The translations under genes were made by a program, and so were the position numbers. The notes under the pieces were generated by a model. That model saw only the letters and a program-made list of their open reading frames with translations, did not search any database and had not been told where the DNA came from. From Bacillota bacterium (GTDB taxonomy: Bacteria > Bacillota > Limnochordia > Darwinibacteriales > Darwinibacteriaceae), in assembly GCA_029776155.1 (NCBI GenBank), contig JAKOTU010000006.1, positions 3,102 to 35,101 of the forward strand: a stretch of DNA of 32,000 bases, given 5' to 3'. Below, piece by piece: positions 2,063 to 20,280 of the stretch (the stretch's first letter is position 1; the number at the start of each line of letters is the position of its first letter).

Positions 2063-2791
2063 TCAGTTCATGAGCAGCTTCCGGTACAGCCCTGCCACTT
2101 CCGAGCGGGGCTGGGAGAACACCTTTTCTGGCTCGCCCTCCTCCACCACCATGCCTTTGTCCATGAACACAATGCGGTCCGCGGCCCTGAGGGCAAAGGA
2201 TACTTCGTGGGTGACAATTACCATGGTCGTACCTGTGGTCTTTACCAGTTCCTCCATAACCTCCAGCACCTCCCCCACCAGGATGGGGTCCAGGGAGGCG
2301 GTGGGCTCGTCCCAGAGCATGACCTCGGGATTGGCAACCAGCGCCCGGGCGATGCCCACCCGCTGCTGCTGGCCCCCGCTGAGCTGGCTTGGACGGCGCT
2401 GCGCCGCCTCTTTGAGACCCACCTTGTCCAGGGCAGCCAAGGCCCTTTCCCTAGCTTCTTCCCGCTCCATCCCTGCTAGAACCAGGTGGAACATGACGTT
2501 CTCCACGGCGGTGAGGCGGGCAATGAGGTTAAAGTGCTGGAATACAAAGCCTACTCTGCGCCTAAACTGCTGCAGCTCCTGCCCGGCAAGGGCCAGAACG
2601 TCCTGGCCCGCTAACGTAATAGAGCCGCGGTCAGGCTCGGTCAGTCGGTTGATGCAGCGGATCAACGTCGATTTCCCGCAGCCCGAGGGCCCCATGATCA
2701 CCACCGTCTCCCCCTTAGCCACATCCAGATCCACGCCGGCCAAGGCTTCCGTCTTGCCATAGGACTTATACAGATCCCTAATTTCCAGCAC
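2063..2791 (-). CDS. ABC transporter ATP-binding protein, polar-amino-acid (GlnQ/MetN) type
   Basis: 242 aa. It has Walker A GPSGCGKST, Q-loop VFQHFNL, signature LSGGQQQRVGIARAL, Walker B MLWDEPTASLDP and H-loop VTHE. The FALRAADRIVFMDKGMVVEEGEP tail is typical of type-I importer ATPases. The GTG start lies 6 nt after GGGAGGTGG. The gene is 53 bp downstream of the 707-aa membrane protein gene. Confidence 0.85.
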   Translation of the reverse strand: MLEIRDLYKSYGKTEALAGVDLDVAKGETVVIMGPSGCGKSTLIRCINRLTEPDRGSITLAGQDVLALAGQELQQFRRRVGFVFQHFNLIARLTAVENVMFHLVLAGMEREEARERALAALDKVGLKEAAQRRPSQLSGGQQQRVGIARALVANPEVMLWDEPTASLDPILVGEVLEVMEELVKTTGTTMVIVTHEVSFALRAADRIVFMDKGMVVEEGEPEKVFSQPRSEVAGLYRKLLMN

Positions 2792-2844
2792 CAGCTTCCA
2801 CCTCCCATCTTTATAATCCTACTTTTTGTATCTTGCTCCTGGCA

Positions 2845-4968
2845 TCAAAACTGCTGCTTGAACCTGTTAAGCACATTAAGCAGCCCGGGCCTGCCGGAGG
2901 GGATAACCACTTCCCGCATGATCTGCACATGGGACAGTCCCAGGGCCTGGCCGGCCATCAGCTCCATGCCGTCCACGGGGCTGAACCGCTCCGAAAGGGC
3001 CGCCACCGCAGCCCCCAGTCCAAAGCCCAAAGTCGCGATGACCGCCGGCGTGAACAGGGGAATCTGCCCGCCTGCGAGCTTGTAAATGCTGCTCAAAAGG
3101 GCACTGCCCACCACTCCCCCCAGGAGGAGCAGGGGATCCAACCAGCGCAGCCAGGGTCTGGCGGGGGCCTTCATTCCAGCGCGCAGCTGCTTGAGGGTAC
3201 TGAAAATGGTGGCATGGTCCAGCACCAAGGCGATCAGGGTAAAGACAATGGCCAGAAGCCCTGCCACAATGGAGCGCACTTCCCGCAAAATGCGGAAGAT
3301 CTCGCCCCGGGCGTCGGGGGAGATCATGCCCGCGGAGGTGGAGTAGGTGTGCAGATACGGGTTGTCCAGTTCCCTCTGGAACAGCTTTTCCAGTTCCTTT
3401 TCATTTGGTTTCTTGCCCTCAATAAGGAGCTGGACGCGCTCTCCGGGGATCACCTGGCCGCCCAAATAGGTGTTGATCAAGCGGATAGACTGGCCGATTT
3501 CCGCATCGCTCAGATCGGGCAGGGTGTCCCGGACAAAGCCGATCTGTTCCATAATGGCCGCCACATCGATCTGCTGCACGTTGGCGATCTGGGTGCTGAT
3601 CCCGTCCAGGCTGCGGCGCATCTCCTCAATATCCAAATTCTCCAGGGAATCCAAGGACTCTTCGCCGCTGCTCAAAACGCTCTGGGCCAGGGTCTGGAAC
3701 AGGCCGTTGAGCAAAAGGGTAAGCAGGAACTGCTCTCCAGAGGCTCCGCCCTCACCCCTTGTGATGCCCTCATTGAGTTGGCGCATCTGCACCTGGAGCA
3801 CCTCTAACTGCATGAGGGCTTCTTGGAAGGTGACCAGCACCGCCTCAGCATTGTCCACCGCGGCGCTGGCCTGCACCGCCAGCTCCTCCAACTCCGCCAA
3901 GAGCCGCAGGCTTTCCTCCACGGCATAGGCCAGGCGGTAGCGTTCGTTTTCGATCTCCACTTTCCCCGCAAACTCGCCGGGGACACCATCGCTTTGCAGG
4001 CGAAAGCCCTGGTGCACAACGGTATCGGTGGTCTGCACCGGGGAACCTTGGATGATCATGCCTTCGGCCAGCTCCCCAAATACACCAGTCACTTCCACAA
4101 TCAGCTCCTGGCCGGCATCGGCCTGGCCTTCCAGCACCAAGCGCTCACCCACCGCCAGGGCAATCCCGGGAGCGGGGAAAATGCGCACTTTGGAGGCGTA
4201 ACTGCCCAGAAAGTCCCGCATTTCCACCAGGGTCTTCAAAAAAGCGTCCAAGTCTTCTCCGTACTGGGCGGAGGTGATGTTGGAAAAACGGCTGGCCTGC
4301 AGGCTGTCCTGGGCGCGCAAAATCTTGAGAGCCTGTTCCCCCACTTCCTGGGTATCCACGGCAAAGCCCATGGGAAAGCGCAGCTCCAAAATGTGGTACT
4401 GTTCCAAGATGCCCTCAATGGCTGCTGCTGCCTTATCCAACTCAGCCTCCCCTTCTACCAGCACCACCAGGTTGTTTCCATCCTTTACGGCAAAGCGCAC
4501 TCCGGAAAGGGCTTCGATCCGCTCCCTCAGTTCCTCACGCACCCCAGGGTGCACGCCCCGGATGAGCACACTGGGCTGCACCATAAGCGTATAACCGTTC
4601 AGACCGGGAACCGCGCCAAAAAAGGAGGTGATGCTCTCCAACACCTCCCTGGTCCGATACTCTGGCGGCAGCCCGAAAAACACATTGGCCTGCCCGGCAA
4701 TGATCAGGCTCTCCTTCAGTTTGAAACCGGGGAAGGACTGCCCGCCGATGCGCTCCAGCTCCCGCAAGGCCGCCTCCTTGGCCTCGGCGCGGATATGCAG
4801 AATCAGGTCATATTCGCCGTAACCGCCGATCAGCTCTTCCAGGGTATCGCCGAAGTACGCATCAATGGCCCAGGCAATGCCCTGGGAAAAAACGGCGCCG
4901 ACCACAATGGTGACAACGAGCAAAAGCGCCAGATCTTTATAGAATCCATCGCGGAAAAAATCGAGCAT
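2845..4968 (-). CDS. Atypical ABC transporter membrane component: 4 predicted TM helices, ~530-aa extracytoplasmic domain, C-terminal EAA-type coupling motif
   Basis: 707 aa. There is one N-terminal hydrophobic helix (LALLLVVTIVVGAVF). A long soluble region follows, with coiled-coil-like stretches (LAELEELAVQASAAVDNAEAVLVTFQEALMQLEVLQVQMRQL). Three C-terminal helices lie at about residues 567-583, 613-629 and 638-658, and the TM2-TM3 loop is K/R-rich. The tail MAGQALGLSHVQIMREVVIPSGRPGLL aligns position by position with the EAAxxxGxxxxxxxxxIxLP loop of binding-protein-dependent permeases. The ATG at 4968 lies 7 nt after GGAGG. I did not recognise a family for the large domain. Confidence 0.7.
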   Translation of the reverse strand: MLDFFRDGFYKDLALLLVVTIVVGAVFSQGIAWAIDAYFGDTLEELIGGYGEYDLILHIRAEAKEAALRELERIGGQSFPGFKLKESLIIAGQANVFFGLPPEYRTREVLESITSFFGAVPGLNGYTLMVQPSVLIRGVHPGVREELRERIEALSGVRFAVKDGNNLVVLVEGEAELDKAAAAIEGILEQYHILELRFPMGFAVDTQEVGEQALKILRAQDSLQASRFSNITSAQYGEDLDAFLKTLVEMRDFLGSYASKVRIFPAPGIALAVGERLVLEGQADAGQELIVEVTGVFGELAEGMIIQGSPVQTTDTVVHQGFRLQSDGVPGEFAGKVEIENERYRLAYAVEESLRLLAELEELAVQASAAVDNAEAVLVTFQEALMQLEVLQVQMRQLNEGITRGEGGASGEQFLLTLLLNGLFQTLAQSVLSSGEESLDSLENLDIEEMRRSLDGISTQIANVQQIDVAAIMEQIGFVRDTLPDLSDAEIGQSIRLINTYLGGQVIPGERVQLLIEGKKPNEKELEKLFQRELDNPYLHTYSTSAGMISPDARGEIFRILREVRSIVAGLLAIVFTLIALVLDHATIFSTLKQLRAGMKAPARPWLRWLDPLLLLGGVVGSALLSSIYKLAGGQIPLFTPAVIATLGFGLGAAVAALSERFSPVDGMELMAGQALGLSHVQIMREVVIPSGRPGLLNVLNRFKQQF

Positions 4969-4995
4969 TACCCTTCCTCCTCACCCAGTGCATTC

Positions 4996-5024
4996 ATTAT
5001 AACATGCCTCTAGCTGGGTCTTAA
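4996..5024 (-). promoter_or_regulatory. Putative sigma-A promoter with extended -10, upstream of the ABC pair
   Basis: The minus strand reads TTAAGA-N17-TGT-TATAAT. The -35 is at 5019..5024, the TGn extension at 5002..5004 and a perfect TATAAT at 4996..5001. The -10 is about 28 nt upstream of the ATG at 4968, with GGAGG between them. Confidence 0.45.
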
Positions 5025-5058: not shown

Positions 5059-5628
5059 CTATTCCCGCTCGGTGTTGAACAGTCCCTGGAAGGCGCCGAA
5101 GAACTGCAGTTCCCTCGTTTCTAGGAACATGACGAACTTCTCGCCCTCTAATACCCCATCTTCAAACTCCACCTTCACCTGGCCGGTGAACACAGCCCTA
5201 TCTGTTTCCTCATCGTAATCCAGCTGCTGGGCGTACACGGTGGCGTCCTCCGTGACCACAACGACGCTGCCCACGGCCTGGAGCCTCTTTTCGCTCCCGA
5301 AATACTCCACCGTCTCCGCGGTGAGGGTAAAATCCTCTTTGGTGAGGGTGGCCCCGCCGGTGAAGATCAGGTAGTCATCTTCCGTGCGCCACTCCATTTT
5401 CTGGCCCACCAGGCGTACTTCCTCGAAGGTAACGTGAATGGCCGCCCCGGCAAAGTCCCTTACATCCGCGGCAAACACCCCTGATTCCCGGTTGTAACGC
5501 CCGGTGGCCGCATCCGCAGGTACTCCCATAATCTCCAGCCTGCCCCTTTGGCCCTGGGCCTGACACGCCCCCGATGCGCCCATGATAACCAAGGCGAGCA
5601 CAAAGAGCACAATCCACTTCTTAGTCAC
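5059..5628 (-). CDS. lptA: Periplasmic LPS transport protein LptA (OstA-like beta-jellyroll)
   Basis: ORF 5059..5649. I prefer the GTG at 5628, which lies 6 nt after GGAGGAGGGGG and gives MTKKWIVLFVLALVIMGASGACQA, a signal peptide. The rest is repetitive OstA_N-like beta strands (LTAETVEYFGSEKRLQAVGSVVVVTEDATVYAQQLDYDEETDRAVFTGQVKV). The gene overlaps the lptC 3' end. Confidence 0.65.
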   Translation of the reverse strand: MTKKWIVLFVLALVIMGASGACQAQGQRGRLEIMGVPADAATGRYNRESGVFAADVRDFAGAAIHVTFEEVRLVGQKMEWRTEDDYLIFTGGATLTKEDFTLTAETVEYFGSEKRLQAVGSVVVVTEDATVYAQQLDYDEETDRAVFTGQVKVEFEDGVLEGEKFVMFLETRELQFFGAFQGLFNTERE

Positions 5629-6256
5629 TGCCTGCCCCCTCCTCCACAACTACATTTCCGTAAAAGTCCAGTACTTCCCCGTCCAGATCGTAGACCGCTT
5701 CTTCCAGCTTCCACAAGAGGGTTCCCTCCCGGATTTCCACGCTGCGCCTCAGGTGCACCTGGGCCTGCTCCGTATCCAGGCTCATCTCCTCAGCTGTGAT
5801 CTCCAGGCCCTGCCAAAGCATGCGCACAGGACCCGGGGAGAACAGCCGGCCGGTACGCCCCTCCCACTCCAAGTAATCGCTTTCCAGGCGGAACCCGTCT
5901 TCACCTTCCACCACAACCGGGCCGTGCAGCTTCAAAAGCTCGGCTCTGCGTTCCCACTGGGCCCGGGGTGTGCGGATGTTTAGATAAGGCTCCCCATCCT
6001 GGAACACCACCATTTTCTCCAGATCGCTTAAGGTAACCAGATTCCCTTCCTGGAGCACACTGCGGCTGATGATCTCCCACTGCCGCTGGCCACCTCGCCG
6101 CCCCACCAGCCGGCTTTCCACCAGCTGGACACTGGGGGGCACGCTCACCGCAGGGGGAGACGGCTGGAGCAGAAAGCGCAGGGTAAAAAAGAGGATGACC
6201 CCAACCAGGACTGCGCCCGCGGCCAGTATTCCCTTTGCCTTGGCTGTCAGGCTCAT
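5621..6256 (-). CDS. lptC: LPS export system protein LptC (membrane-anchored)
   Basis: About 211 aa. It has an N-terminal TM anchor (GILAAGAVLVGVILFF) followed by an LptC/OstA-like beta-rich domain. The ATG at 6254..6256 overlaps the lptD TGA (TGATG coupling). It lies immediately upstream of lptA, as in canonical lptC-lptA. Confidence 0.6.
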   Translation of the reverse strand: MSLTAKAKGILAAGAVLVGVILFFTLRFLLQPSPPAVSVPPSVQLVESRLVGRRGGQRQWEIISRSVLQEGNLVTLSDLEKMVVFQDGEPYLNIRTPRAQWERRAELLKLHGPVVVEGEDGFRLESDYLEWEGRTGRLFSPGPVRMLWQGLEITAEEMSLDTEQAQVHLRRSVEIREGTLLWKLEEAVYDLDGEVLDFYGNVVVEEGAGSD

Positions 6257-8391
6257 CACTCCTTCACATCGATAATATCCGCCACATCCTCCAGGTCAAA
6301 CAGGCTCAAGCCCCCTTGGCTGTCCCAGCCAATGGGCAGCGTGGGGAAGGCGTTGATGGTGAGCTGCACCGCAAAGCGGCCCGCCACATGGTCATAGGAG
6401 AACCCCAGCTGACGGCAGTGCAGATCCCTGCTGATGGTAATCTGCCCCTTGGTGAACTGCTGGGCTGCCGGAGCATAGATGCTGTCATAACTCACCTTCC
6501 AAGCTGAGCCCACGGGCAGGCTGAAACGCAGATCCACCCGCTCCAGCTCACGGCTTGGCGGCCTGTAGCGCAGACCCAGCTTCAGGCTGAACTGATCATG
6601 CTTGTATTCGGCCATGGGCACCAAACGGGTCCAGCTTCTGGTGTTGAGATCATAACTGGCGTAAAGGTCCAAGGTCCAGCGCTCGGAAGGCTTGAGATAG
6701 GCATTCAGAGTCAAAGTGCTGAAGCGCTTGTTTACAAAATCATAGACGGTAGAGGCATAACCCCGCGCATTCCCCCGGCTGTAGCTAAGGCGCAGGCTCA
6801 GATCCTCTAGTTTTCCCTGGGCATCGAACTTGAAGGGCGTGCTGCCCCACACATCCCGGCGCCGATAGGTACTGCTAAAAGAAAGGTGTTTGCCCAGGTT
6901 TTGATTTAAGGAGACCCGCCCGTACAACCAGGCCTGGCTGCTGCCATCCGAATACACCGCGCCGTTCAAATCGCCCTGGTAGGTGAGGCTCGTACCTGCG
7001 CGGGGACGCCAGGTCCTGGCCCTTAACGCCACCTGGCCGTAGCCCCTGCTTTGGATAACCATGGAGGGGGTTTCTTCATAGTGCCCCAGAACCAGCTGCC
7101 CTTGGAGGGGCAGGCTGTTCAGGCCCAGATCGCCTATTTCCCACTTCAGCTCCGGCCTGCGCTGTAGGCTGCGCCAATCCTTGGTCCCGGTGTCCAGCAG
7201 ATCCGGGTTGAACTGCTGCTCCATGGTAAGGGTCAACCGGTGCTTCCCCTGGTTGTACACGGCGGCCAGGAGGTAGTTCATGAGCCGCACCTCTTCCGTG
7301 GTGCGCTTTTGGGCGTAGCTGCCCTCCACATTGAGGGTCAAACGATCGCCCAGGGGCTTGGACCACTGCATGCCAGCGCTGGTCTCTTCCTTGGTGGTGG
7401 CCTGGGGATTCTTTTTGTAGGTCAGCCAAAGCTTGCCCTTAAGATCCCCTGCGCTCACATGCAGGGCGGTGTCGGAGCTGATCTCGTCCTTCAACCAGGT
7501 CTTCTCCACGCTGTTCTTGGTGGCAAAGGTCCAGCTGTCCTTGGTTAAGCTGTGTTCCCAGGCCGCTTTGTAGTGCTTTTCCGCCGCGGTGGGCACCCCC
7601 CACAGGTACAAGTGCCCCTGGCCCAGTTCTTGGAGCTTGTAGTGGTGCTTCACGCCTGCACCCAGCCCCAAGCGGGTGTACAGGTCCACATAGAGGTTGC
7701 CGTAGGAGTTCTCAGTGAAGAAATAGTTGAAGGCGCTCTTGATAAAGTACCCTTCATAGTCGCCGTAGCCCACCACGGGCAGGCTGACCAGAAGGTCTTC
7801 CAGATCCCGCCCTAGAGGCACTACTAAATAGGGCCAATAAAAAAGGGGGATCTGCCCTTCGTAGTACACCACATGGCGGATGATGGCCTTGTCACCGGGG
7901 ATAAACTCCATTTCTTTGGTGACCAGGCGGTAGTGGCTCTGCTCCAAATCGCAGGTGGTGAAGGCGGCCTGGGCAATGGAGTACTGCTCCTGATCAAAGA
8001 GGATCAGGCGCCCAGAAGCGTACACCGTCCCATCGGGCACGGCAAGCTCGGCGCGCACTTCTTCAAAGGACCCTTCGCCCGTATTTAGGTTGTAGACCAA
8101 AAAGGCACCCCTTATCTCCTGCCCATCCTGGATCAGGCGCACATCCCCCTCCAAGGTGACTAAGCCCTCGGCCAAATCGGCGCGCAGCACACTACCCAAG
8201 AGCATCAGCCCGTCCACGTGCACCTCCACATCCCCTTCAGCCGTAAACACCTGGCTTTCCAGATCGTAAGAGCCGGTTTTGCTCGCGGCAATGCGCACCC
8301 CCTGTTCCGCACTGAAAGCAGGGGGCGCCGGCCAGATGAGCACCACAATTAGAGCCGCGACCAGAAGCGGTGCGCCCTTCCCCAGCTGCAT
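6256..8391 (-). CDS. lptD: LPS-assembly outer membrane protein LptD (OstA)
   Basis: ORF 6256..8442. I prefer the ATG at 8391 (GGGGAGAG SD), giving the signal peptide MQLGKGAPLLVAALIVVLIWPAPPAFSA. It has an N-terminal OstA_N-like repeat (AEGDVEVHVDGLMLLGSVLRADLAEGLVTLEGDVRL). It also has the FTTCD motif and IPLFYWPY, both typical of LptD. A long C-terminal region has an amphipathic beta-strand pattern. Confidence 0.75.
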   Translation of the reverse strand: MQLGKGAPLLVAALIVVLIWPAPPAFSAEQGVRIAASKTGSYDLESQVFTAEGDVEVHVDGLMLLGSVLRADLAEGLVTLEGDVRLIQDGQEIRGAFLVYNLNTGEGSFEEVRAELAVPDGTVYASGRLILFDQEQYSIAQAAFTTCDLEQSHYRLVTKEMEFIPGDKAIIRHVVYYEGQIPLFYWPYLVVPLGRDLEDLLVSLPVVGYGDYEGYFIKSAFNYFFTENSYGNLYVDLYTRLGLGAGVKHHYKLQELGQGHLYLWGVPTAAEKHYKAAWEHSLTKDSWTFATKNSVEKTWLKDEISSDTALHVSAGDLKGKLWLTYKKNPQATTKEETSAGMQWSKPLGDRLTLNVEGSYAQKRTTEEVRLMNYLLAAVYNQGKHRLTLTMEQQFNPDLLDTGTKDWRSLQRRPELKWEIGDLGLNSLPLQGQLVLGHYEETPSMVIQSRGYGQVALRARTWRPRAGTSLTYQGDLNGAVYSDGSSQAWLYGRVSLNQNLGKHLSFSSTYRRRDVWGSTPFKFDAQGKLEDLSLRLSYSRGNARGYASTVYDFVNKRFSTLTLNAYLKPSERWTLDLYASYDLNTRSWTRLVPMAEYKHDQFSLKLGLRYRPPSRELERVDLRFSLPVGSAWKVSYDSIYAPAAQQFTKGQITISRDLHCRQLGFSYDHVAGRFAVQLTINAFPTLPIGWDSQGGLSLFDLEDVADIIDVKE

Positions 8392-8407: not shown

Positions 8408-9484
8408 CTAATACCAGCGGTCCGCGAGGACCAGCAACACAAACCCGCTTACGGCAAAGAGGCTGTTCACCAGCCAAGCTGCCACCAAGGGCGGCAGAAC
8501 TTCGTTGATCCCCAAGGAGCGGGACACCGAGACGGCCACATAGTACACGAGCAGGATGACCAGGCTCACAATAATCCCGTAGGCCCGCCCCCCCTTCCCC
8601 AGGAGGGCCAAGGGCGCGGCAAAGAGGGCAAAGACAAAGGAAGACATGGGTAGAGAAAGGCGCATGTGGTGCTCCACCACCCAAGAACGCACCTTCAGAC
8701 CGCCGCGCTGAAAACGCTCAATGTACTCGGCCAGCTCCCGCCGGCTCATCTCTTCCACAGAGCGCTGATTACCGAAGTAAACTTCCCCTTCCTGCTCTGT
8801 GACGATTTCCATACGCTCAAAGCGGCTTTCAAACTGCACAAAACCCTCTTCATCCAACTCCTGATACACTCCGTCAAAGAGCACCCACACATTGTCGTGG
8901 AAAACCCCCGTCTTGGCACTGGTGATGCTGGGAAAACCACTGGAAGACAGCTCGTAGACCAGGATCTTCTTCAGCTCGTGGGTCTTGGTGTCCACTTCCC
9001 CGATGTAGAAATAGCGGTCATCACCTCCGTGGAAGAACACGTTTTCCTCCACCAGGGGCACCCCGTCGGAGAAGATGATCCGCCTGAGAATGTTCTCAAA
9101 CTTGGTGTTGGCGGCGGGCACAATGTATTCCGACGCCAGGTACGTGCCGATGCTGATCAACAGGCCCAGCACTAAAAAGGGCACAATCAGCCGGGGGTAG
9201 GCAATGCCGCTGCCCCGCATCACCGTCATTTCATTGTCCTGCACCAAGCGGCCCACGGCCAGCAGGGTAGCGAACAAGGTGGCAATGGGTAGGGTCATTA
9301 CCACCGTGGCGGGAATGCGGTAGAGGAGCAGGCGAGCCACTGTGGGCACGTCCACATCGTGCACAAAAATCAAATCGGTAAGCTGGAACAAAAGCCCGCT
9401 GATGAGTACCACTGTGAACCCAAAGACACAGAAGAAAAAAGGTCCCAGAAGCTCACGGGTGAGATAGCGGTCAAAGATTCTCAT
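8408..9484 (-). CDS. LPS export ABC transporter permease, LptF/LptG (YjgP/YjgQ) family
   Basis: 358 aa. The N-terminus MRIFDRYLTRELLGPFFFCVFGFTVVL is characteristic of LptF/G. Three TM helices, a roughly 130-aa periplasmic beta domain and three more TM helices follow. The ATG lies 8 nt after GAGGTG. It is the only copy in this window. Confidence 0.85.
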   Translation of the reverse strand: MRIFDRYLTRELLGPFFFCVFGFTVVLISGLLFQLTDLIFVHDVDVPTVARLLLYRIPATVVMTLPIATLFATLLAVGRLVQDNEMTVMRGSGIAYPRLIVPFLVLGLLISIGTYLASEYIVPAANTKFENILRRIIFSDGVPLVEENVFFHGGDDRYFYIGEVDTKTHELKKILVYELSSSGFPSITSAKTGVFHDNVWVLFDGVYQELDEEGFVQFESRFERMEIVTEQEGEVYFGNQRSVEEMSRRELAEYIERFQRGGLKVRSWVVEHHMRLSLPMSSFVFALFAAPLALLGKGGRAYGIIVSLVILLVYYVAVSVSRSLGINEVLPPLVAAWLVNSLFAVSGFVLLVLADRWY

Positions 9485-9512: not shown

Positions 9513-10109
9513 CTAAAAGTCCAGGCGGTAATGGATCCCCGCGCTCAGCCCCCGGCCCAAGGCCACGCCCAGATCAACTCCCAGTTCGGGACTGAACTGG
9601 GCCTGCAGACCCCCGGAAAGGCCGATCCCATCGTACTCCAGGAACAGGGAAGTGGTGGGCACATCGCTCACCTTGACCGGGTTAAGCATCACGGTCACCC
9701 CAGCCATGCCCCGGGAGTATCGGCCCAACCCCCACGCCAGGTGCCCCCGCACGTGGGGTGCGCCCAGCTGTTTGGAAAGTACAGCGTAAAGATCCTGCCG
9801 GCCGGCGGAGAACTCGCCCCCCAAGGCCAGGGCAGGCCACTCTTCCGTTTCCTCGGCGAGCACGGCCTTCACCGCGGCAGAGAGCTTACCCCCAATCTCC
9901 TGCTGCACCGCGGCACTGAATTGGGGATGCAGCCCCAGTTCCAGACGGACAGTATGCCGGCCGCGGTGATAGGCATAATCCAGCTGCAAGCTCCCAGCCT
10001 GCACGGCATCGGCGGTGGGCATGGCCAGGATCTGTGCGGCCTGGCCTGAGCCTGTGGAGATCAGCAGAAGTACAATTATGCTCCAAATTGCGCTGCGAAT
10101 TTTCCTCAT
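9513..10109 (-). CDS. Small secreted protein, probable outer-membrane beta-barrel (unknown family)
   Basis: About 198 aa. It has a signal peptide (MRKIRSAIWSIIVLLLISTGSGQA). The rest shows alternating hydrophobic/polar strand patterns, is Gly-rich, and ends in a C-terminal aromatic beta-signal-like ...GIHYRLDF. It is the first gene of the lptFG-lptD-lptC-lptA run. Confidence 0.45.
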   Translation of the reverse strand: MRKIRSAIWSIIVLLLISTGSGQAAQILAMPTADAVQAGSLQLDYAYHRGRHTVRLELGLHPQFSAAVQQEIGGKLSAAVKAVLAEETEEWPALALGGEFSAGRQDLYAVLSKQLGAPHVRGHLAWGLGRYSRGMAGVTVMLNPVKVSDVPTTSLFLEYDGIGLSGGLQAQFSPELGVDLGVALGRGLSAGIHYRLDF

Positions 10110-10194
10110 CACTGCAACCTCATCTCCTTCGTTTACCTTGTAATTCTCCCCTAGCGGAATGATTACCTGCCAGAAGGGTCTTGGCAGTTGGTGG

Positions 10195-10219: not shown

Positions 10220-10691
10220 ACTTCAATTTGCTGATTACTTCATCGGTTAAGTCCGTTCCCCCGTAGCGGATCACATCGCTATCCAACACGACTGAAATGC
10301 CCTTTCTTTCTGCCACTTCCTTAACCGCAGCGTTCACTTCCCGCTCCAACTGCAGCTCCAACTCCTGCCGATAGGCTAGGTATTCGGCATAGGCCTGCCG
10401 CTCCCTGGCGGCCCGGTCCACATCCCCTTCCGTCGGCTCATCTTCCAGATCAAAGCGGGTTAAAAGTTCCTGGTAGCGCTGGGCCAGCAGTTCATTAAGC
10501 TCCTGGGCCCGTGGGCTTTCATCCACCACCCGCATCAGGTTCACAACTCCCACTGCCTGCCCGGTCGGCCCCGCGAGCAGGGCCCAAACCAAAGCCAGGG
10601 CCAGAAGGCCGGCCAGAGCCCAAGGCAGATACTTCAATCTCCTCACCACCTTACCTAAGGCTGAGCGTCGTTCCACCTTAGTATGACCCAT
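10218..10691 (-). CDS. skp: Periplasmic chaperone Skp/OmpH
   Basis: 157-aa ORF. It has an N-terminal hydrophobic segment (LPWALAGLLALALVWALLAG) and then a charged helical region. The pattern VGVVNLMRVVDESPRAQE...LQLEREVNAAVKEVAERKGISVVLDSDVIRYGGTDLTDEVISKL is typical of OmpH. The gene is next to bamA. The start is uncertain; an internal TTG after GGTGAGGAGA is possible. Confidence 0.7.
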   Translation of the reverse strand: MGHTKVERRSALGKVVRRLKYLPWALAGLLALALVWALLAGPTGQAVGVVNLMRVVDESPRAQELNELLAQRYQELLTRFDLEDEPTEGDVDRAARERQAYAEYLAYRQELELQLEREVNAAVKEVAERKGISVVLDSDVIRYGGTDLTDEVISKLK

Positions 10692-11271
10692 TTGCCTGGG
10701 CCCTAGACAAAGCGAGGCGGTAGAGGGCGAGCTCCTCCTGGACGGCCTGGAAAAGTTCTACTTCCAAGGCAGCGAGGCGTCTTCCGAGCTCTGCTTCGTG
10801 GATAGTTTGGAGCTCTTCCATTCGTTCCTTATACTCCGCCTCCAGCTGGTCTTGGAGGTCCCGCAGCTCCTCCTGGACAGCGGCCAGCTCTAAGAGCTTC
10901 TCCTCCTCTTCCTGGGGAGCAAGGGAGACAAAAAGGAGTTCTAGCTGCAGTCCTAAAAGCTCTTTGTTCAAATCCTGCTGCTCAGCCGCGGCCCGGGCCT
11001 GCAGCTCTTCTCTGAGGGCAGCAGCGGCATCATGGAGCTTTTGGGCCTGTTCCCGCCTGAGCTCTCCCCCTTTTTCAGCAAACAGCTCCTCCGCCGCCTG
11101 CAGCAGTTCCTGCTCATAGTTGGCCCCCTCAGCCTGCTGGGCATAGAGCTGCACCGCGCTCCAGCCCAATCCGCCAGGAGCCCCTTGGCGCCCTGCACCC
11201 AAAGACAGTGCGGAGCCCGAGAGCAGAGCCGCAAGCAAAGCCAGGCCGATCAGCCCTGTTAGCTGCCGCAT
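10678..11271 (-). CDS. Periplasmic coiled-coil protein, possible second Skp/OmpH-like chaperone
   Basis: ORF 10678..11448. I prefer the ATG at 11271, which lies 7 nt after AGAGGGGA and gives the signal peptide MRQLTGLIGLALLAALLSGSALSLGA. The remainder is a Glu/Leu/Gln-rich helical region. It overlaps the skp start by 14 bp. Confidence 0.4.
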   Translation of the reverse strand: MRQLTGLIGLALLAALLSGSALSLGAGRQGAPGGLGWSAVQLYAQQAEGANYEQELLQAAEELFAEKGGELRREQAQKLHDAAAALREELQARAAAEQQDLNKELLGLQLELLFVSLAPQEEEEKLLELAAVQEELRDLQDQLEAEYKERMEELQTIHEAELGRRLAALEVELFQAVQEELALYRLALSRAQANGSY

Positions 11272-11328
11272 CAGTTCATCCCCTCTTTCTGGTGTCATTA
11301 TAACAACACCCGGGCAGGGGAACAAATG

Positions 11329-11370
11329 CAAAAAAAGCCAGTGAGCTGGCCAAAAGCCTGCCCACTGGCT
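11329..11370 (-). terminator. Intrinsic terminator after bamA
   Basis: The minus strand reads AGCCAGTG GGCAGGCTTTTGGCCAGCT CACTGGCT followed by TTTTTT. The outer stem is 8 bp and there is further pairing inside the loop. It starts 12 nt after the bamA TAA. Confidence 0.75.
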
Positions 11371-11381
11371 GATTTGTGATC

Positions 11382-13115
11382 TTAGAAAGTCTGGCCGATG
11401 CCGAAGTAGAACTGCCCCTTGCGGGTCTGGTCGGCAGTTTTGCCCCAACCGTAGTCCAGGCGCAGGAGTCCCAGGGGCGTATCCAGGCGCACGCCAAGTC
11501 CGAAGGAGTTCTTCAGATCCTGCAGCGACAGCGTCTCACCCCGGTCCCAGGCGGTGCCCCAGTCGGTAAAGACTACGCCCTGGATCTTCTCCACGATGGG
11601 GAAGCGGAATTCCGCGTTCATGACCAGCATATTGTCCCCCACCAGGTCCTGCGACGGGTCGCCGTAGCTGTAACCCCTCAGGGTATCTGCTCCGCCGATG
11701 CGGAACTTGTCGCTTCCGGGCAGCTCGCCGCCTAAGAGCCGGCCGCCAATGCCCCGCACGGCCAGCACATAGCCGCCGTCGCGCACTTCAAAGTAGCGGC
11801 TGTGCTCCAGGCGCAGCTTGGCATAGTTGCTGCTGCCGCCGAACAGGGTGGTACCCAGCTCCAGGTAGATATCGTTCTTGTAACCTTCCGTGGGGAAGAA
11901 GGGATGATCCACCGTGTTGGTGTTCAGACCGATCCCGATGTTGCGCGTCTTAGAATCATCCGGCTTCCAGGCCTGGCCTTCTTCCAGGTAATCATAGGCG
12001 TTGTTCTCCAGCTTAAAGGTGAGGCGGCCGCGGGTAAACTCGGACAAGGGCTTGCCTAAAGTCAGGCTGCCACCGAGGCTGGTACGCTTGCTTTCATACT
12101 CCACGCCGGTCTCGGGATGTTTGGCCTTCTCATTGCCAGTCTGGCGGTACAGGCTGGTGCCCAGGGAAATTCCGGACTTGGTGATATAGGGCTCATAGAA
12201 CTCAAACTCGTAAGAGGTGGTCTTTTTGCCTAGGCTCACGTTGGCCTTGATTCTCTGGCCCCGGCCAAAGAAGTTGTCATCGGACACCTGGATGAAGCCC
12301 ACTAGACCTTCTGCGGTGCTGTAGCCTACACCGAAGGTGGCTGCGCCGGTTTTGCGCTCGGTGAGGTTGATGGTGAGCACAGTCTGGTCCGTGCCTTCTT
12401 CTTCCGCAAGTTCTCTGCTGATCTCGTCAAAAAAGCCCAGCATGAGCAGCCTGCGCAGGCTCTGATCGATCTCCTGAATGTTCACCGGTTCGCCCACTTT
12501 AAAGCTGAGCTCCCGCTCGATCACGAAGTCTTTGGTCTTTTCATTGCCCGTGATCACAATCTCCTTCAGGATGCTTTGGGCCAGCTCGATGGTGATGTAT
12601 CCATCGGTGTCAGCGCTCAGGGAGGTTATGCGGGTCAGGTACCCGTATTCTTCCAGAATCCATTTCCAGAGGCCATCCAGATCCTCCCACAGATCGTGGG
12701 CATTGAGGATATACCCAGGCTGGGTTTTCATCTTTTTGGCATAGTCTTTAAAGGCCACACCCGGCACTCCAGAGAAGGTTACTTCCCGCACAATGGGGTT
12801 TTCCACGACGTGGAACACTACCTCTACTCCACCCAAAGCAGGGTCAATTGTGGCCTGCACATCTTCGAAGAAGCCCAGATCGTAAATGGCCCGAATGTCG
12901 TCGATGATCTTCTGCTCTTCCGCCGGCTCACCCAGCCGCGTCTTTAAGATGGCGGCTTTAATGGTCTCGGTGTCGATAATACTGTTGCCTTTGATGGTAA
13001 TCAGCCTCACGGTGCCGAGTTCCTGGGCCCGGGCCGGCACTGCTCCCCCGTGCGCCGCCAGGAGCACGCCCACTAGGATCAGCGCCATAACCACCCTGGC
13101 TGAAGGTTGCCTCAT
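11382..13115 (-). CDS. bamA: Outer membrane protein assembly factor BamA (Omp85, POTRA + beta-barrel)
   Basis: ORF 11382..13130. I prefer the ATG at 13115, 7 nt after GGGAGG. It has a signal peptide, POTRA-like repeats (IKGNSIIDTETIKAAILKTRLGEPAEEQKIIDDIRAIYDLGFFEDVQATIDP) and a C-terminal Omp85 barrel (RIGGADTLRGY, GVVFTDWG). It ends in the beta-signal FYFGIGQTF. Confidence 0.9.
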   Translation of the reverse strand: MRQPSARVVMALILVGVLLAAHGGAVPARAQELGTVRLITIKGNSIIDTETIKAAILKTRLGEPAEEQKIIDDIRAIYDLGFFEDVQATIDPALGGVEVVFHVVENPIVREVTFSGVPGVAFKDYAKKMKTQPGYILNAHDLWEDLDGLWKWILEEYGYLTRITSLSADTDGYITIELAQSILKEIVITGNEKTKDFVIERELSFKVGEPVNIQEIDQSLRRLLMLGFFDEISRELAEEEGTDQTVLTINLTERKTGAATFGVGYSTAEGLVGFIQVSDDNFFGRGQRIKANVSLGKKTTSYEFEFYEPYITKSGISLGTSLYRQTGNEKAKHPETGVEYESKRTSLGGSLTLGKPLSEFTRGRLTFKLENNAYDYLEEGQAWKPDDSKTRNIGIGLNTNTVDHPFFPTEGYKNDIYLELGTTLFGGSSNYAKLRLEHSRYFEVRDGGYVLAVRGIGGRLLGGELPGSDKFRIGGADTLRGYSYGDPSQDLVGDNMLVMNAEFRFPIVEKIQGVVFTDWGTAWDRGETLSLQDLKNSFGLGVRLDTPLGLLRLDYGWGKTADQTRKGQFYFGIGQTF

Positions 13116-13220: not shown

Positions 13221-14954
13221 CTAACGGTAAATGTTGAGGTCGAAGGTGGCCATGCCGTCCAAAACAAACTGCGTGGAAAGCCTCACCAGCACAGGCTCCA
13301 CCGGCTCGGCCCAGGCGTAGTAACCGAGGGCATCGAGCTCGGAGAATTCATCCTCTACGGATTCATCCCCCTGCTCCACGTTTTGCTCCAGGAAAGGGTA
13401 GAACTCGGCCACTAACTCGTTACTCCTCTCCCCATCCATATATTCCTCAATCAGGTCGTCCAAAGTGTCCGCATCAGCAATAAAAGCTTTCATAGGTTCT
13501 TCTTCTTCGTCGGAACTGGGCTCCAGGATGCTGGTATGTACTGGTGGTTTGGCGTTGTAGTAGCTCGCCGCCCCACTGCGCACCGTTACCGTGAGCAGTC
13601 CCTCCGCGGTATCCGGGGGGATCTGCAGGCGCAGGGTCCTGGTTTCCAGCTGACCCCGGAAGGGACGGATCAAAACCTCCACATCCACGCTGTCCCCTGC
13701 TTTGACATGGGAAGTGCTGGGTGTGGCCTTTTCAATAGTGGCCGTCTTGCGCTCCCGGGATACCTCCACCTCGATCTTAATCTGCTGCAGATCCACCGCC
13801 TGCAGGTTGTTGGTGAGCAGCAGCTCTAAGCCGGACACCAGATCCACCAGGCTCCAGACAGCGATGTCCGAGTCGCTGTAGAACAGGTTTTCCCTGATCA
13901 TGCGCTGGCCAAAGTCCTTGGATACAAACTCCAACCGCACATAGGCCGTACCATCGCCGATGCGGTCCAAGGCCGCATCAATACTCTGGTAGGCACTGGA
14001 GAGCACCAGGGGCAAAAGGACCTGCTCGTCCTTAACCGCCTCCACGTAGTAGCTCTTGCGCACGCCCCGCTCCGTATCGGTAATGGTAATGCTGATGGGC
14101 ACATAACCCACAGGCGTCCCCAAAACTCCGCCTACGCCGGCCATGCGGTCCTGGGAGACTTTGCCCACCGTCGCCCCCAAGGAAACCACCTTCATGGGTG
14201 CTTCAATATTGGGGATGGTGTAGTGCACGTAAGCCGCGGAGGCGAAGAAGTCCACTGTCCCCCGGTGGAACACGGGATGCCCCATGCCCACAAAACGGCC
14301 GTCGTCCTTTACATGGGTGACGGTTCCGTAAGTAGCTACCACAAAATCACCCCGGAGCAGCTGGACCCCAAACATGCTGCCCGGCTCAAAGGCCGCGGGG
14401 CCAGCGGAGGACGCAGCCGCGAAAGACGGCATGAGCTGCACCCGCTCTGCCCCCAGCGCCCGGAGGAGGTAATTGACATTGCGCTCGTTCATACCCTGCA
14501 CCACCAGGGGAGAGGCCACCGCGACCACATCCTCCGGCAGGGCAGGCTCGGGCAAGGCAATCTGATCATAAATCTTGAACATGTCCACCGCGGGCGTAAC
14601 TAAGCCGATACGGTGGTCTGAATAGGGGTAGGTATAGGCCAGAGCTCCGAGGAGGCGATCCTGGATGTAGACAGGGGACCCACTCATACCCCTGGCAATG
14701 CCTCCAGCCCGGTCGATGGCCTCGCCGCTCACTCTGACCATAATCAGGTTGCTCAAGGGTGGGCTTTGGGGCACCAGCCCCAGTACTTCCACATCAAAAG
14801 TCTCGATGGTATTGCCAGAGATCACCGTTTTGCCGATGCCGCGCAGACCCGGCCTCACTTCTTCAGGGAGGAACAATTCCACCGCTAGAACCGGACAGGA
14901 AACGATACTCGTCACGAGAAGGGCAATTCCAACCCACAACGGCAGTTTTCGCAT
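13221..14954 (-). CDS. Secreted peptidase S55 (SpoIVB-type) domain protein, possible lipoprotein
   Basis: 577 aa. The signal peptide ends in a lipobox-like IVSC. GGIARGMSGSPVYIQDRLLGALAY matches the SpoIVB Ser-motif GMSGSP. YGTVTHVKDDGRFVGMGHPV resembles the SpoIVB His-bearing segment. The ATG lies 5 nt after AGGGGTG. Confidence 0.6.
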   Translation of the reverse strand: MRKLPLWVGIALLVTSIVSCPVLAVELFLPEEVRPGLRGIGKTVISGNTIETFDVEVLGLVPQSPPLSNLIMVRVSGEAIDRAGGIARGMSGSPVYIQDRLLGALAYTYPYSDHRIGLVTPAVDMFKIYDQIALPEPALPEDVVAVASPLVVQGMNERNVNYLLRALGAERVQLMPSFAAASSAGPAAFEPGSMFGVQLLRGDFVVATYGTVTHVKDDGRFVGMGHPVFHRGTVDFFASAAYVHYTIPNIEAPMKVVSLGATVGKVSQDRMAGVGGVLGTPVGYVPISITITDTERGVRKSYYVEAVKDEQVLLPLVLSSAYQSIDAALDRIGDGTAYVRLEFVSKDFGQRMIRENLFYSDSDIAVWSLVDLVSGLELLLTNNLQAVDLQQIKIEVEVSRERKTATIEKATPSTSHVKAGDSVDVEVLIRPFRGQLETRTLRLQIPPDTAEGLLTVTVRSGAASYYNAKPPVHTSILEPSSDEEEEPMKAFIADADTLDDLIEEYMDGERSNELVAEFYPFLEQNVEQGDESVEDEFSELDALGYYAWAEPVEPVLVRLSTQFVLDGMATFDLNIYR

Positions 14955-14976
14955 GAAGCCACCCCTTCACTACCCT

Positions 14977-16383
14977 CTACTTAGAACCTGGAACAACCAC
15001 TATCGCATTTGCTACTGCTCTCTCTTTTCCATCTGAGGGCAGGTTCAAAACCAGGTTGCGGACAACCATGGTTGTGGAACCGCCACCATCTAGATTCATG
15101 GCCTCAAGCGCTCCCAGCTCAATTAGGAGGTTCCCCAGTTCTTCTAAAGTCATGCCTACGCTCACATTGGGCTGCCGACCGTTCACGGTAACCAGCAACA
15201 GTCTGTGATCCGCTGTAATCCCAATAGCGGTGCGGGGAGCCCGCCCCTTGAGAATATCATCTTTGAACTGCTCAGCTTCACCGGTAATCTCCAGCACGCC
15301 GCTGCGCACCAGCCGCGGGCCGCCGCCGATAATCTGCCTGACCCCCAGCTCGCTCCAGTCTGGCATCAAGCTGATCTTCAGCTCCACCCTGTCGCCGGGC
15401 TCCAGCTCGGCCAAGTGCTGGCGCATCACCCCGTGGGCGGAAAGCACAAAACCACCGGGCGGGATGGTGCTGTTCCCTTCCGGCTGCACCGCTACCACCA
15501 CCCCATCCACGACCACCACTTCATGGCCCCAGCGGTTGGTGTTGGTCTTGGTGCCGTAGGCTTCTGTGTACACAATGAGCTCATCCTGCAGCCTGGGGCG
15601 GTTCAGCCCCGAAACTGGGGCGAGCAGCCTGCCTTCGTGGCGCACTTCCCCGGCGAAGCTCACATTGTCCATTACCGCGCCCTGGGGCGTTAAACCCACT
15701 GCGGTGCGGTTGGCGTAGGGTTCGGTTATGAGCTCGCCGTCGATCATGAAAACGCCCAGAGGCCGCCCGTTGGAGGCGAAATAGGCGCCGTTGACCGCGG
15801 CGATGGCCCCGGTGCGCTTGGCCATATCACTGACCCGCTCCGCTCCATAGATGCGGTCCTGGGCCAAAACGAGCTTTACTTCCCAGTTGAGCTGCAGATC
15901 TATCTCCAAATAGTTTACCACATTGGGACCGAAACTGTCAGCCCTGCGCTGGTGCCCGTACACCACCCCGGGCTCCACAATCCGGGTTGTGGTGTCTACG
16001 AAGGTCTTGGGCACCACCAGGCGGAAATAGTCCCCATCTTCCTGCACGCTCCCTGGGGGAAGCTGGTAGTTAAACTCTAAAACCAGGCGCGAGGGGCCCG
16101 ACGCATCCTCGCTGTAGCGCAGCTCCCGCAGGGCAACATCCCCCACCAGCGCACTTGCGGGGAAGCCCGAAAGGGGCTGGTTGGAGTCCACAATCACTTT
16201 CATGGGATGGGAGGTATAACTTACGGCAAACTCCTGTCCCCCCGCTTTGGGCAGGGTGAGCACAACCTCTTGAGGCCAAACCTCCAGCGCCTCAGGCAGG
16301 GCAGCCGCGGCCAGTACCGAAGAGAAGGCAGTGAAAAGTGTTAATAATAAGAAAACAGCCGGCGGAGTCGCTCTCCACTGCAC
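14977..16383 (-). CDS. Secreted phosphodiester glycosidase family protein (NAGPA/DUF2233-like domain)
   Basis: ORF 14977..16389. I prefer the GTG at 16383, 7 nt after GGAGG. It has a signal peptide. The C-terminal half contains AAVNGAYFASNGRPLGVFMIDGELI, PRTAIGITADHRLLLVTVNGRQ and ALEAMNLDGGGSTTMVV, which are characteristic of the phosphodiester glycosidase fold. Confidence 0.7.
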   Translation of the reverse strand: MQWRATPPAVFLLLTLFTAFSSVLAAAALPEALEVWPQEVVLTLPKAGGQEFAVSYTSHPMKVIVDSNQPLSGFPASALVGDVALRELRYSEDASGPSRLVLEFNYQLPPGSVQEDGDYFRLVVPKTFVDTTTRIVEPGVVYGHQRRADSFGPNVVNYLEIDLQLNWEVKLVLAQDRIYGAERVSDMAKRTGAIAAVNGAYFASNGRPLGVFMIDGELITEPYANRTAVGLTPQGAVMDNVSFAGEVRHEGRLLAPVSGLNRPRLQDELIVYTEAYGTKTNTNRWGHEVVVVDGVVVAVQPEGNSTIPPGGFVLSAHGVMRQHLAELEPGDRVELKISLMPDWSELGVRQIIGGGPRLVRSGVLEITGEAEQFKDDILKGRAPRTAIGITADHRLLLVTVNGRQPNVSVGMTLEELGNLLIELGALEAMNLDGGGSTTMVVRNLVLNLPSDGKERAVANAIVVVPGSK

Positions 16384-16440
16384 AGCCAATCCTCCCTTGC
16401 TTTACCCATTACAATTCTTGACAGCAGGGTGTTTTCCTGC

Positions 16441-17929: not shown

Positions 17930-17949
17930 CTGCGTTCCTCCTCATCCCG

Positions 17950-18546
17950 CTAGAACAGCCAGTTGAACAGGCGCGTGAGCAGCCCCGGCTTGTTCTTCTC
18001 GCCCACAATGCCTGTGCCCACGAAGGATATTTCCGCATCGGCCACAAAGGTGGAAAGCACAGTGTTGTCCGGGGCAATATCTTCAGTGCGTACCAAGCCG
18101 GTGAGCACAATTTCCTGTTCCTCGCCGTTCACGACAATCTTCTGCCGGCCTTCAATGCGCAGGGTGTTATTGGCAAAGGTTTCCACCACCCTAGTGGTGA
18201 TCTTAGCCGTAAGGCTCCCGCCCCTGGTCACGGCGCCGTCCGCGGAGAAGCTGTCCCCTCCCCCCAAACGCAGCAGGGGAATGAGATCGGCCAGCACACC
18301 TCCGCCGGGCCCCACGGACACTTCAGCATCCTTGCCCGTGCTGGTGGTAGCCGTCTGCCGAGCCTGGGCCTGCTCCACAATGATCACCGTGACCAGATCC
18401 CCTGGCCTCCTGGCTTTGCGATCCGCAAACAGGGAAGAAGGCTGGTCCACTGGAAACAAAGACTCTGCTAAGGCAAATGCAGAGCTGAACATCAAAAGCC
18501 CCGCAGCGCACAGCAGGACTATAGCAACTAAGGTGAACCGTCTCAC
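17950..18546 (-). CDS. flgH: Flagellar L-ring protein FlgH
   Basis: 198 aa. SLFADRKARRPGDLVTVIIVEQ and ITTRVVETFANNTLRIEGRQKIVVNGEEQEIVLTGLVR match FlgH. The GTG start overlaps the flgA TGA. The signal peptide lacks a canonical lipobox (VLLC; AFA-LAE is a likely SPase I site). Confidence 0.9.
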   Translation of the reverse strand: MRRFTLVAIVLLCAAGLLMFSSAFALAESLFPVDQPSSLFADRKARRPGDLVTVIIVEQAQARQTATTSTGKDAEVSVGPGGGVLADLIPLLRLGGGDSFSADGAVTRGGSLTAKITTRVVETFANNTLRIEGRQKIVVNGEEQEIVLTGLVRTEDIAPDNTVLSTFVADAEISFVGTGIVGEKNKPGLLTRLFNWLF

Positions 18547-19331: not shown

Positions 19332-19334
19332 AAA

Positions 19335-20123: not shown

Positions 20124-20184
20124 AACAAAACGCCCTCCTTTTGCTGTCCGCAATTTAAGCACAGCCTAAGAGAGGGGTATGGAT

Positions 20185-20212: not shown

Positions 20213-20280
20213 CCGGCTTCTGTTTCCAGTCCAGCCTCTGATCCCCTCAGGCTTTCGTGCTTGCAGCTTCCTACCTGCCG

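Follow-up and report, generated by a model that had tools for sequence, protein, structure and literature searches.

A conserved ABC pair with an apparently truncated type-I permease domain in the outer-membrane gene clusters of diderm Firmicutes

How does an ATPase resembling those of amino acid importers come to be paired with a membrane protein laid out like MacB or FtsX, and what might such a pair do among genes for lipopolysaccharide (LPS) synthesis and transport? This question is raised by a 32,000-nucleotide (nt) stretch of a Limnochordia genome (Bacillota bacterium, GenBank assembly GCA_029776155.1, contig JAKOTU010000006.1, positions 3,102 to 35,101), hereafter the window, in which a gene for a 707-amino acid (aa) membrane protein is followed by a gene for a 242-aa ATP-binding cassette (ABC) ATPase. 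An earlier note on this DNA had placed the two genes between lptA and lpxB-lptB, which the open reading frames (ORFs) and the Pfam and NCBIfam assignments of their neighbors confirm (Table 1), and had described them as an orphan pair of hybrid architecture. We find that the pair is a conserved and undescribed ABC module, with a membrane-subunit architecture that is absent from curated libraries and from the PDB. On balance, we favor the view that it is a self-contained ABC machine, most likely of the form (membrane subunit)2(ATPase)2, that belongs to the outer-membrane and LPS biogenesis gene set of diderm Firmicutes. Outer-membrane assembly in these bacteria is an open problem, and the pair is a testable, conserved and ATP-consuming candidate from the middle of the LPS/outer-membrane cluster, present also in cultured species with complete genomes (Sporomusa, Pelosinus, Thermosinus).

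The origin of the membrane subunit is indicated by its C-terminus. Searches of Pfam, NCBIfam and the PDB returned no family that covers the 707-aa protein and no match that reached a curated threshold. The weak NCBIfam matches of a broader alignment were to type-I permeases only (PstC, PotC, PstA, MetI, ArtQ, HisM and similar), and 13 of the 24 members of the family alignment matched the Pfam model BPD_transp_1 (best = 22.7 bits, E = 9.3e-5), always with their last ~100 residues and against model positions ~13-114 of 184. Searching the family profile against all PDB sequences placed MetI and PotC at the top, aligned at the EAA loop, with residues 107-148 of MetI covered. For profile-profile comparisons with hhalign, two reference profiles were made from E. 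coli K-12 genes, one of type-I permeases (MetI, PotB, PotC, PotI, ArtM, ArtQ and GlnP) and one of LolC, LolE, FtsX and MacB. The family matched the seven type-I permeases with 94% probability (E = 1.4e-7), and the C-terminal fragment alone did so with 96% (E = 3.4e-9), the alignment falling exactly on the EAA region (MetI 111-158). This region of the 707-aa protein contains the motif MAGQALGLSHVQIMREVVIPSGRPGLL (residues 671-697), after which the chain runs on for 10 residues to its end at 707, and it carries in a cytoplasmic segment the EAA coupling motif (EAA-x3-G-x9-I-x-LP) by which type-I permeases are recognized. Because no block of the family is more conserved than this motif, which also aligns to the EAA loop of the E. 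coli permeases, the likeness is beyond chance, and the near-perfect EAA coupling loop that the earlier note had seen at this C-terminus can be accepted.

A complete type-I core has five helices, of which all family members lack the two that would follow the EAA loop. The order TM2-TM3-TM4-EAA of the 707-aa protein (TM, transmembrane helix) corresponds to TM1-TM2-TM3-EAA of MetI. As read from these alignments, the membrane subunit is a type-I (BPD_transp_1, MetI-like) domain without its last two core helices, ahead of which an N-terminal anchor and a periplasmic module of ~530 aa have apparently been gained. With the type-I importers (MetI, PotC, ArtQ/M and GlnP, with MetN and GlnQ as ATPases) the pair shares the EAA register, the first ~60% of the Pfam model and an importer-type ATPase; these importers differ from it in their full set of post-EAA helices, their binding protein and their nutrient-uptake context, and the pair falls under every curated cut-off.

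Hydropathy places hydrophobic segments at residues 13-31, 566-584, 610-631 and 638-656. The loop between TM1 and TM2 is 529 aa long and acidic (83 D/E versus 45 K/R), five K/R fall within 23 residues of the TM2-TM3 loop and none in that between TM3 and TM4, so that the protein reads N-in/C-in. Hydropathy and charge together agree with the four transmembrane helices, the positive-inside loops and the large external domain between TM1 and TM2 that had been proposed for this protein. The external domain, put at about 530 aa and partly coiled-coil, is matched by the length of the loop and by three long helices in an AlphaFold2 model (Table 1). In this full-length model (24-sequence alignment, predicted local distance difference test (pLDDT) = 75.8, predicted template-modeling score (pTM) = 0.44), a long helix (residues 2-47) is followed by two beta-alpha-beta-beta-alpha-beta units (~55-197) that are predicted to be ferredoxin/ACT-like, a beta-rich region (~260-340), the helical arm, a final beta-alpha-beta-beta unit (511-550) and a long helix (553-597) that leads into the membrane. 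Helices 2-47 and 553-597 are stalk-like and the beta-alpha-beta units lie beside the membrane, and in the model TM1 is probably an uncleaved anchor that runs on as a periplasmic stalk helix. The tip of the arm (~398-445) is modeled with low confidence. In Limnochordia it holds a conserved hydrophobic helix (consensus EQLLVSLLLNGLFQxLAQ) with Gly/Ser-rich loops on either side, in place of which other lineages have longer helical insertions, and this helix could be a membrane- or ligand-contacting element.

Foldseek matched the periplasmic module to tandem ACT/ferredoxin folds (probability = 0.97), and 10 of the 24 family members gave weak NapD-like matches to it. The best matches of the full-length model were MmpL5 and MmpL4 (9mvz_D, 9syt_B), at E = 3e-3 to 5.5e-3 and a TM-score of ~0.1, which is not significant. 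These proteins have the same order of a membrane helix, a ferredoxin-like (porter-type) domain, a long coiled-coil insertion and a return to the membrane, but they are proton-driven 12-helix proteins of the resistance-nodulation-division (RND) type, and the match is one of architecture and not of homology. For a separate model of the C-terminal part (residues 545-707, pLDDT = 75, pTM = 0.62) the top five matches were PotC, SugB and MalG at E ~1, a consistent hint only. Three other origins for parts of the module were tried and rejected: descent of the beta domain and hairpin from a membrane fusion protein (0.1% by hhalign against MacA and an HlyD-type protein of Sporomusa), a beta-jellyroll of the Lpt kind for the beta-rich region (2.6% against LptA, LptC and the YjbH-like outer-membrane protein (OMP)), and a fused substrate-binding protein (SBP) domain (module against GlnH, ArtJ and ArtI = 0.3%, with no SBP match in Pfam).

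Given its layout, the protein might instead be a divergent member of the type-VII class of MacB, LolCE and FtsX in which the EAA likeness is secondary. It has the same four-helix topology with a large loop between TM1 and TM2, its model shows the stalk-like helices and membrane-proximal beta-alpha-beta units, and FtsX and LolC/E do turn up low in the Foldseek lists (rank 41 for the full-length model, ranks 7 and 9 for the C-terminal one), although the matches to this class are not significant. The profile comparisons speak otherwise, with an hhalign probability of 5% against LolC/LolE/FtsX/MacB and no match to FtsX (PF02687) or MacB_PCD in the 24 members even at E<=10, and the partner ATPase scores clearly higher against GlnQ, ArtP and MetN than against MacB, FtsE and LolD. 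We consider a type-VII origin very unlikely, and the part of the earlier "hybrid" proposal that implied MacB/LolCE/FtsX ancestry does not hold. Rather, as far as sequence comparison goes, the resemblance to MacB and FtsX is one of topology, perhaps of mode of action, and not of ancestry. In both, each subunit has four helices, the first two of which are separated by a large periplasmic domain; long stalk helices, a setting related to the envelope and, probably, a homodimeric state are further points in common. They differ in the coupling element, which in the pair is the C-terminal EAA motif and in type-VII systems a helix between TM2 and TM3, and the pair further has a periplasmic domain about twice as large, with a coiled coil, an ATPase of the importer clade and no detected sequence homology. 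By analogy, type-VII mechanotransmission systems are most plausibly what the pair works like. ABC systems are classified by membrane-domain fold, and if the present assignment is true, a conserved front half of the type-I fold that converged on the MacB/FtsX topology would represent a second, independent route from transporter to mechanotransmitter.

The ATPase had been read as GlnQ/MetN-like and not MacB/LolD/FtsE-like, and our comparisons agree; the motifs quoted for it are present. Its sequence identity to GlnQ of E. coli is 50%, versus 41% to ArtP and 38% to MetN, and it scores 219 bits against GlnQ versus 145-157 bits against LolD, FtsE and MacB, the LptB of the window also scoring lower. 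The best NCBIfam model was GlnQ (260.9 bits), ahead of FtsE, LolD and MacB, and its Walker B region has the GlnQ and ArtP form WDEPTASLDP in place of ADEPTGNLD. Since the score against the GlnQ model lies under the equivalog cut-off (379 bits, NF007027), the ATPase is GlnQ-like but not GlnQ.

Could the pair then be an ordinary nutrient importer for polar amino acids, with a fused receptor and a functionally meaningless position in the LPS cluster? The identity to GlnQ and the permease-type EAA loop would fit, and one Joint Genome Institute (JGI) record names a homolog "ABC-type amino acid transport system permease subunit". Further, N-terminal fusion of extracytoplasmic domains to type-I permeases is known, as in the receptor domains of Lactococcus lactis GlnPQ, which like the pair combines a GlnQ-type ATPase with N-terminal extracytoplasmic domains within the same permease superfamily. 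The 707-aa protein departs from GlnPQ in that its module is not of the binding-protein fold, as the comparison with GlnH/ArtJ-type proteins showed, and in that its permease is truncated, the two post-EAA helices being absent family-wide. The ATPase score under the equivalog cut-off also argues against an ordinary importer, as does a position in the lpx/lpt cluster that is kept between classes at ~30% identity (below). An importer is thus improbable, while a GlnPQ-type fusion is a plausible evolutionary starting point for the pair.

The truncated architecture is a constant property of the family. An exhaustive profile search over 1.84 billion representatives (clusters at 50% identity) yielded 242 clusters, all of them genuine members, and did not spill over into ordinary permeases. 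The full-length members (~600-900 aa) all end right after the EAA motif. This block is the most conserved segment, with a mean column identity of 0.58-0.71, followed by the N-terminus together with the first ferredoxin-like units, and by the helix into TM2. Short variants (577-676 aa) lack residues ~255-344, that is, the beta-rich domain, and long variants carry 41 to 115 additional residues in the arm tip (423-433), which is the most variable part. Given this pattern, the engine (anchor, ferredoxin-like base, three permease helices and EAA loop) is conserved and the arm is adjustable. In six clusters (930-996 aa) the membrane subunit is fused to the ATPase, with the membrane domain first and an ABC_tran domain after the motif that begins ~45 residues past it, and one such fusion occupies the usual position in the LPS cluster.

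The natural fusions (proteins P0216, P0220, P0223, P0233, P0239 and P0244; locus L085, 10001-12799) include one from a Limnochordales metagenome-assembled genome (MAG).

A permease-like domain that stops where a normal one continues could also be taken for a truncated or decaying gene, or for an artifact of assembly or gene calling. This is hardly credible and already refuted by conservation: more than 100 homologs, from independent assemblies and from cultured species with complete genomes, share this C-terminus, no other part of the protein is as conserved as the EAA block, and natural fusions to the ATPase exist. The earlier note had not recognized the combination as a described family, and indeed no Pfam, NCBIfam or PDB family corresponds to it and the homologs of Sporomusa, Pelosinus and Thermosinus are named "hypothetical protein". 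The pair is also unmentioned in Poppleton 2017 and in the two detailed accounts of this cluster, Antunes 2016 (PMC5007114) and the main text of the 2026 study of Acetonema longum (PMC13018214).

To follow the pair across genomes, we scanned one genome per GTDB species (126 matches, 80 kept) and compared gene order over 82 loci, using the envelope proteins of the window as probes in flanks of +/-10 kb. The closest homologs are from Limnochordia MAGs and Candidatus Darwinibacter acetoxidans, the named hosts being Limnochordia and unclassified Bacillota MAGs. At ~30% identity, the hosts are cultured Negativicutes of the Sporomusaceae group, namely Sporomusa acidovorans, S. rhizae, S. aerivorans, Pelosinus, Anaerospora, Dendrosporobacter and Massilibacillus. 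A protein search with the Sporomusa copy added Thermosinus and Methylomusa, likewise annotated "hypothetical protein", and the family is probably present in Acetonema. A profile search of a word-indexed protein database returned the Limnochordia set only and no further taxa. The distant clusters are mostly unnamed metagenome proteins, and those with names are Limnochordales.

Across these loci the gene order is strikingly stable. The ATPase gene lies directly downstream of the membrane-subunit gene in 81 of the 82 (median gap = 23 nt), the remaining locus being a contig end, and lpx, lpt, bamA or ompH genes are found in the flank of 76. Of the loci without such genes, one is a 2-kb contig and the others are five second copies in Negativicutes. 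In Limnochordia the order is BamA-OmpH-YjbH-like-LptF/G-LptD-LptC-LptA-[pair]-(FabZ)-LpxB-LptB, and in Negativicutes BamA...OmpH-LpxD-YjbH-like-LpxL-[pair]-LpxC-FabZ-LpxA-LpxI-LpxB-MsbA. The linkage holds at 26-34% identity, across two classes, and also in the fused and short forms. None of the 82 loci was seen in a recognizably monoderm context, and the MAG labels Natronincola, Syntrophothermus and Bacilli do not mean monoderms because a full LPS cluster is present at the locus. The adjacency to lpt and lpx genes is therefore conserved. The pair has been kept in the outer-membrane/LPS cluster across at least two classes of diderm Firmicutes and so probably contributes to outer-membrane construction.

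The description of the pair as an orphan is apt in part. No SBP gene stands beside it in any locus examined, and it has no second permease; on the other hand, the two-gene unit is self-contained and occurs in stand-alone paralogs. The latter are the five second copies of Sporomusaceae (L068 5617-13102 of Sporomusa rhizae, L055, L067, L073 and L075), whose common neighborhood consists of the two genes only. A link to RND efflux was rejected: the second copy of S. rhizae follows genes for a TetR regulator, an HlyD-type adaptor (membrane fusion protein) and AcrB, but this neighborhood recurs in no other locus and appears incidental.

How would a self-contained machine of this kind work? By analogy with MetNI or MalFGK2, the EAA helices would dock in the groove of the ATPase. 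The coupling motif and the type of ATPase point to one ATPase docked per subunit, as in MetNI, and the subunit-ATPase fusions point to a half-transporter that dimerizes. Alternating-access import would be unlikely for an eight-helix dimer that has no pathway-lining helices, and as such a dimer is probably unable to import, ATP binding and hydrolysis would move the stalk helices and the periplasmic module. Closure of the ATPases would shift TM2, TM4 and the stalk helices, and with them the module with its ferredoxin-like base and coiled-coil arm of variable length. The working logic would resemble that of MacB, LolCDE and FtsEX, in that the pair would serve as a mechanotransmitter or would extract a lipid-anchored envelope component from the inner membrane. 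On this analogy, the pair is most likely an ATP-driven mechanotransmitter or extractor for outer-membrane biogenesis, and the candidates for its substrate or partner would be an intermediate of LPS or lipid A, a lipoprotein or some other component of the outer membrane.

Several points weigh against this view of the pair. We infer its envelope role from synteny alone, and the stand-alone paralogs of Sporomusaceae mean that the module is not always tied to LPS genes. The BPD_transp_1 matches of the family are all under the Pfam gathering score (26.4 bits), and the 707-aa protein of the window itself has no BPD_transp_1 match at E<=0.1. The structural support comes from monomer models of moderate quality (pLDDT ~75, pTM of 0.44 and 0.62), for which Foldseek found no significant fold match with either the full-length or the C-terminal model. 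Finally, a partner membrane protein may be encoded elsewhere.

The neighboring genes also suggest a narrower role, in which the pair would act on LPS or lipid A itself, as an Lpt/Lpx accessory or checkpoint that senses or extracts lipid A-core on the periplasmic side of the inner membrane or that controls LpxC. In nearly all loci the pair lies between lptA and lpxC or lpxB, in Negativicutes and many other lineages it is directly upstream of lpxC, and in Sporomusa the preceding gene encodes a lipid A acyltransferase. However, a complete LptB-LptF/G-LptC-LptA-LptD set and MsbA are already there, the module has no beta-jellyroll similarity by hhalign, and a substrate cannot be identified from gene order alone. 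LptB2FG-C, likewise an ABC machine encoded in this cluster, takes a lipid out of the inner membrane, but its membrane fold (LptF_LptG) is unrelated to the 707-aa protein and the window has its own LptB and LptF/G. We regard a role of the pair in acting on LPS or lipid A itself as rather unlikely.

Could the pair instead substitute for the Lol pathway, extracting lipoproteins from the inner membrane and passing them across the periplasm via the helical arm? The earlier note had presumed a lack of Lol in diderm Firmicutes. This is true of Negativicutes, including Acetonema longum, which have neither LolA/B nor the Lol pathway, but Halanaerobiales carry LolA and LolCDE (PMC5007114); with that exception, diderm Firmicutes are without Lol and also without LptE, BamB-E, MlaA and MlaC (PMC5007114, PMC13018214). 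The lipoprotein idea is attractive because Negativicutes nonetheless encode a predicted outer-membrane lipoprotein, SonB (PMC5007114, PMC13018214). In addition, the family is found in both Sporomusaceae and Limnochordia inside the outer-membrane cluster, and its topology is like that of the extractor LolCDE. Against this stand the lack of homology to LolC/E and the flanking genes: no lgt, lsp, lnt or LolA-like gene turned up among the probes used in the +/-10 kb flanks, and the lpx and lpt neighbors point to LPS rather than to lipoproteins. We judge a Lol substitute to be quite unlikely. A broader proposal, which we make tentatively and consider unlikely, is that the pair represents a new class of ABC machine in which a four-helix subunit derived from a type-I permease no longer transports across the inner membrane and the importer-type EAA/ATPase engine drives a periplasmic arm, the whole being a core factor of outer-membrane biogenesis in diderm Firmicutes that would fill a function seemingly missing from them, for instance Lol-independent extraction of lipoproteins or lipids and their delivery to the outer membrane.

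The 707-aa ORF starts with an ATG at 4968 and is separated by 53 nt from the 242-aa ORF, which starts with a GTG at 2791 behind a GGGAGG ribosome-binding site (RBS). An extended -10 promoter of the pair's own had been proposed, and a site of this kind is present upstream (10/12 matches, with the TG). It is not above chance: the scan returned one such site versus 1.1 in shuffled sequences, and the site is therefore not significant by itself.

Table 1. Coordinates in the window of the ABC pair, its parts and signals, and the adjacent envelope genes
Feature	Coordinates	Strand	Remarks
Membrane subunit, 707 aa	2845..4968	minus	ORF call; anchor, periplasmic module and putative truncated type-I permease domain
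ABC ATPase, 242 aa	2063..2791	minus	GlnQ-like (polar-amino-acid-importer type), without extra domain
TM1, residues 13-36	4861..4932	minus	Follows conserved cytoplasmic N-terminus MLxFFRDGFxKD
Periplasmic module, residues 37-565	3274..4860	minus	Predicted structure, Foldseek, weak profile matches
Long helical (coiled-coil) region, residues 342-502	3463..3945	minus	AlphaFold2; helices 342-404, 412-432 and 447-502
Hydrophobic helix FLLTLLLNGLFQTLAQSVL at arm tip, residues 414-432	3673..3729	minus	Kyte-Doolittle 1.52; conserved within Limnochordia
TM2-TM4, residues 566-660	2989..3273	minus	Includes invariant D584; counterpart of the type-I permease helices ahead of the EAA loop
EAA-type coupling motif, S663-L697 (SPVDGMELMAGQALGLSHVQIMREVVIPSGRPGLL)	2878..2982	minus	hhalign, MetI alignment, family conservation
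RBS GGAGGA of the 707-aa gene	4975..4980	minus	Read from sequence
Promoter-like site TTAAGA-17-TGTTATAAT (TATAAT, TG extension)	4996..5024	minus	28 nt upstream of the start codon
LptA-like	5059-5649	minus	Pfam and NCBIfam; upstream of the pair
LptC	5621-6259	minus	Pfam and NCBIfam; upstream of the pair
LptD-like, 728 aa	6256-8442	minus	Pfam and NCBIfam; upstream of the pair
LptF/G	8408-9484	minus	Pfam and NCBIfam; upstream of the pair
LpxB	722-1963	minus	Pfam and NCBIfam; downstream of the pair
LptB	16-753	minus	Pfam and NCBIfam; downstream of the pair

Farther upstream of the pair are genes for a YjbH-like small OMP, OmpH/Skp, BamA and the flagellar P- and L-rings, a gene set typical of the envelope clusters of diderm Firmicutes. 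The match of the LptD-like protein is confined to the N-terminal jellyroll and part of the E. coli LptD model, with an NCBIfam E of 3.4e-9 that is far under the cut-off, and no LptE gene is visible alongside it; this agrees with the atypical LptD reported for Acetonema. In the same part of the cluster there is one LptF/G-type gene, for which the LptF and LptG models score alike, and in several related loci LptF/G is fused to, or directly ahead of, the LptD-like gene (products of 1048-1092 aa, L001 and L002).

The YjbH-like protein (~200 aa; 9513-10112, minus strand, in the window and 7927-8559 in L057) is kept in nearly every cluster, where its gene adjoins LptF/G in Limnochordia and LpxD in Negativicutes. 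The Pfam YjbH model scores the window copy at only E = 3e-4 and the Sporomusa copy at 3.4e-14. The 2026 study of Acetonema longum lists a YjbH-like homolog, F7NM17, a 12-stranded OMP of unknown role, together with the LpxL F7NM16 (PMC13018214).

Between BamA and OmpH, an ORF at 10678-11448 (minus strand) has no Pfam match; read from a probable internal start, its product would be a helical protein rich in Glu and Leu behind a signal peptide, and may be another Skp-like chaperone. Genes at 13221-16389 (minus strand), between that for BamA and those for the flagellar rings, encode a SpoIVB-type S55 peptidase-domain protein of 577 aa and a phosphodiester glycosidase (NAGPA) of 470 aa. The genes for the flagellar P-ring (FlgI), the L-ring (FlgH), FlgA and the rod (16814-20982, minus strand) directly adjoin the outer-membrane cluster, as expected for a diderm flagellum. 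All genes identified in the window are on the minus strand and the GC (guanine-cytosine) skew is negative in each 1-kb bin, a layout that is consistent with co-orientation with replication.

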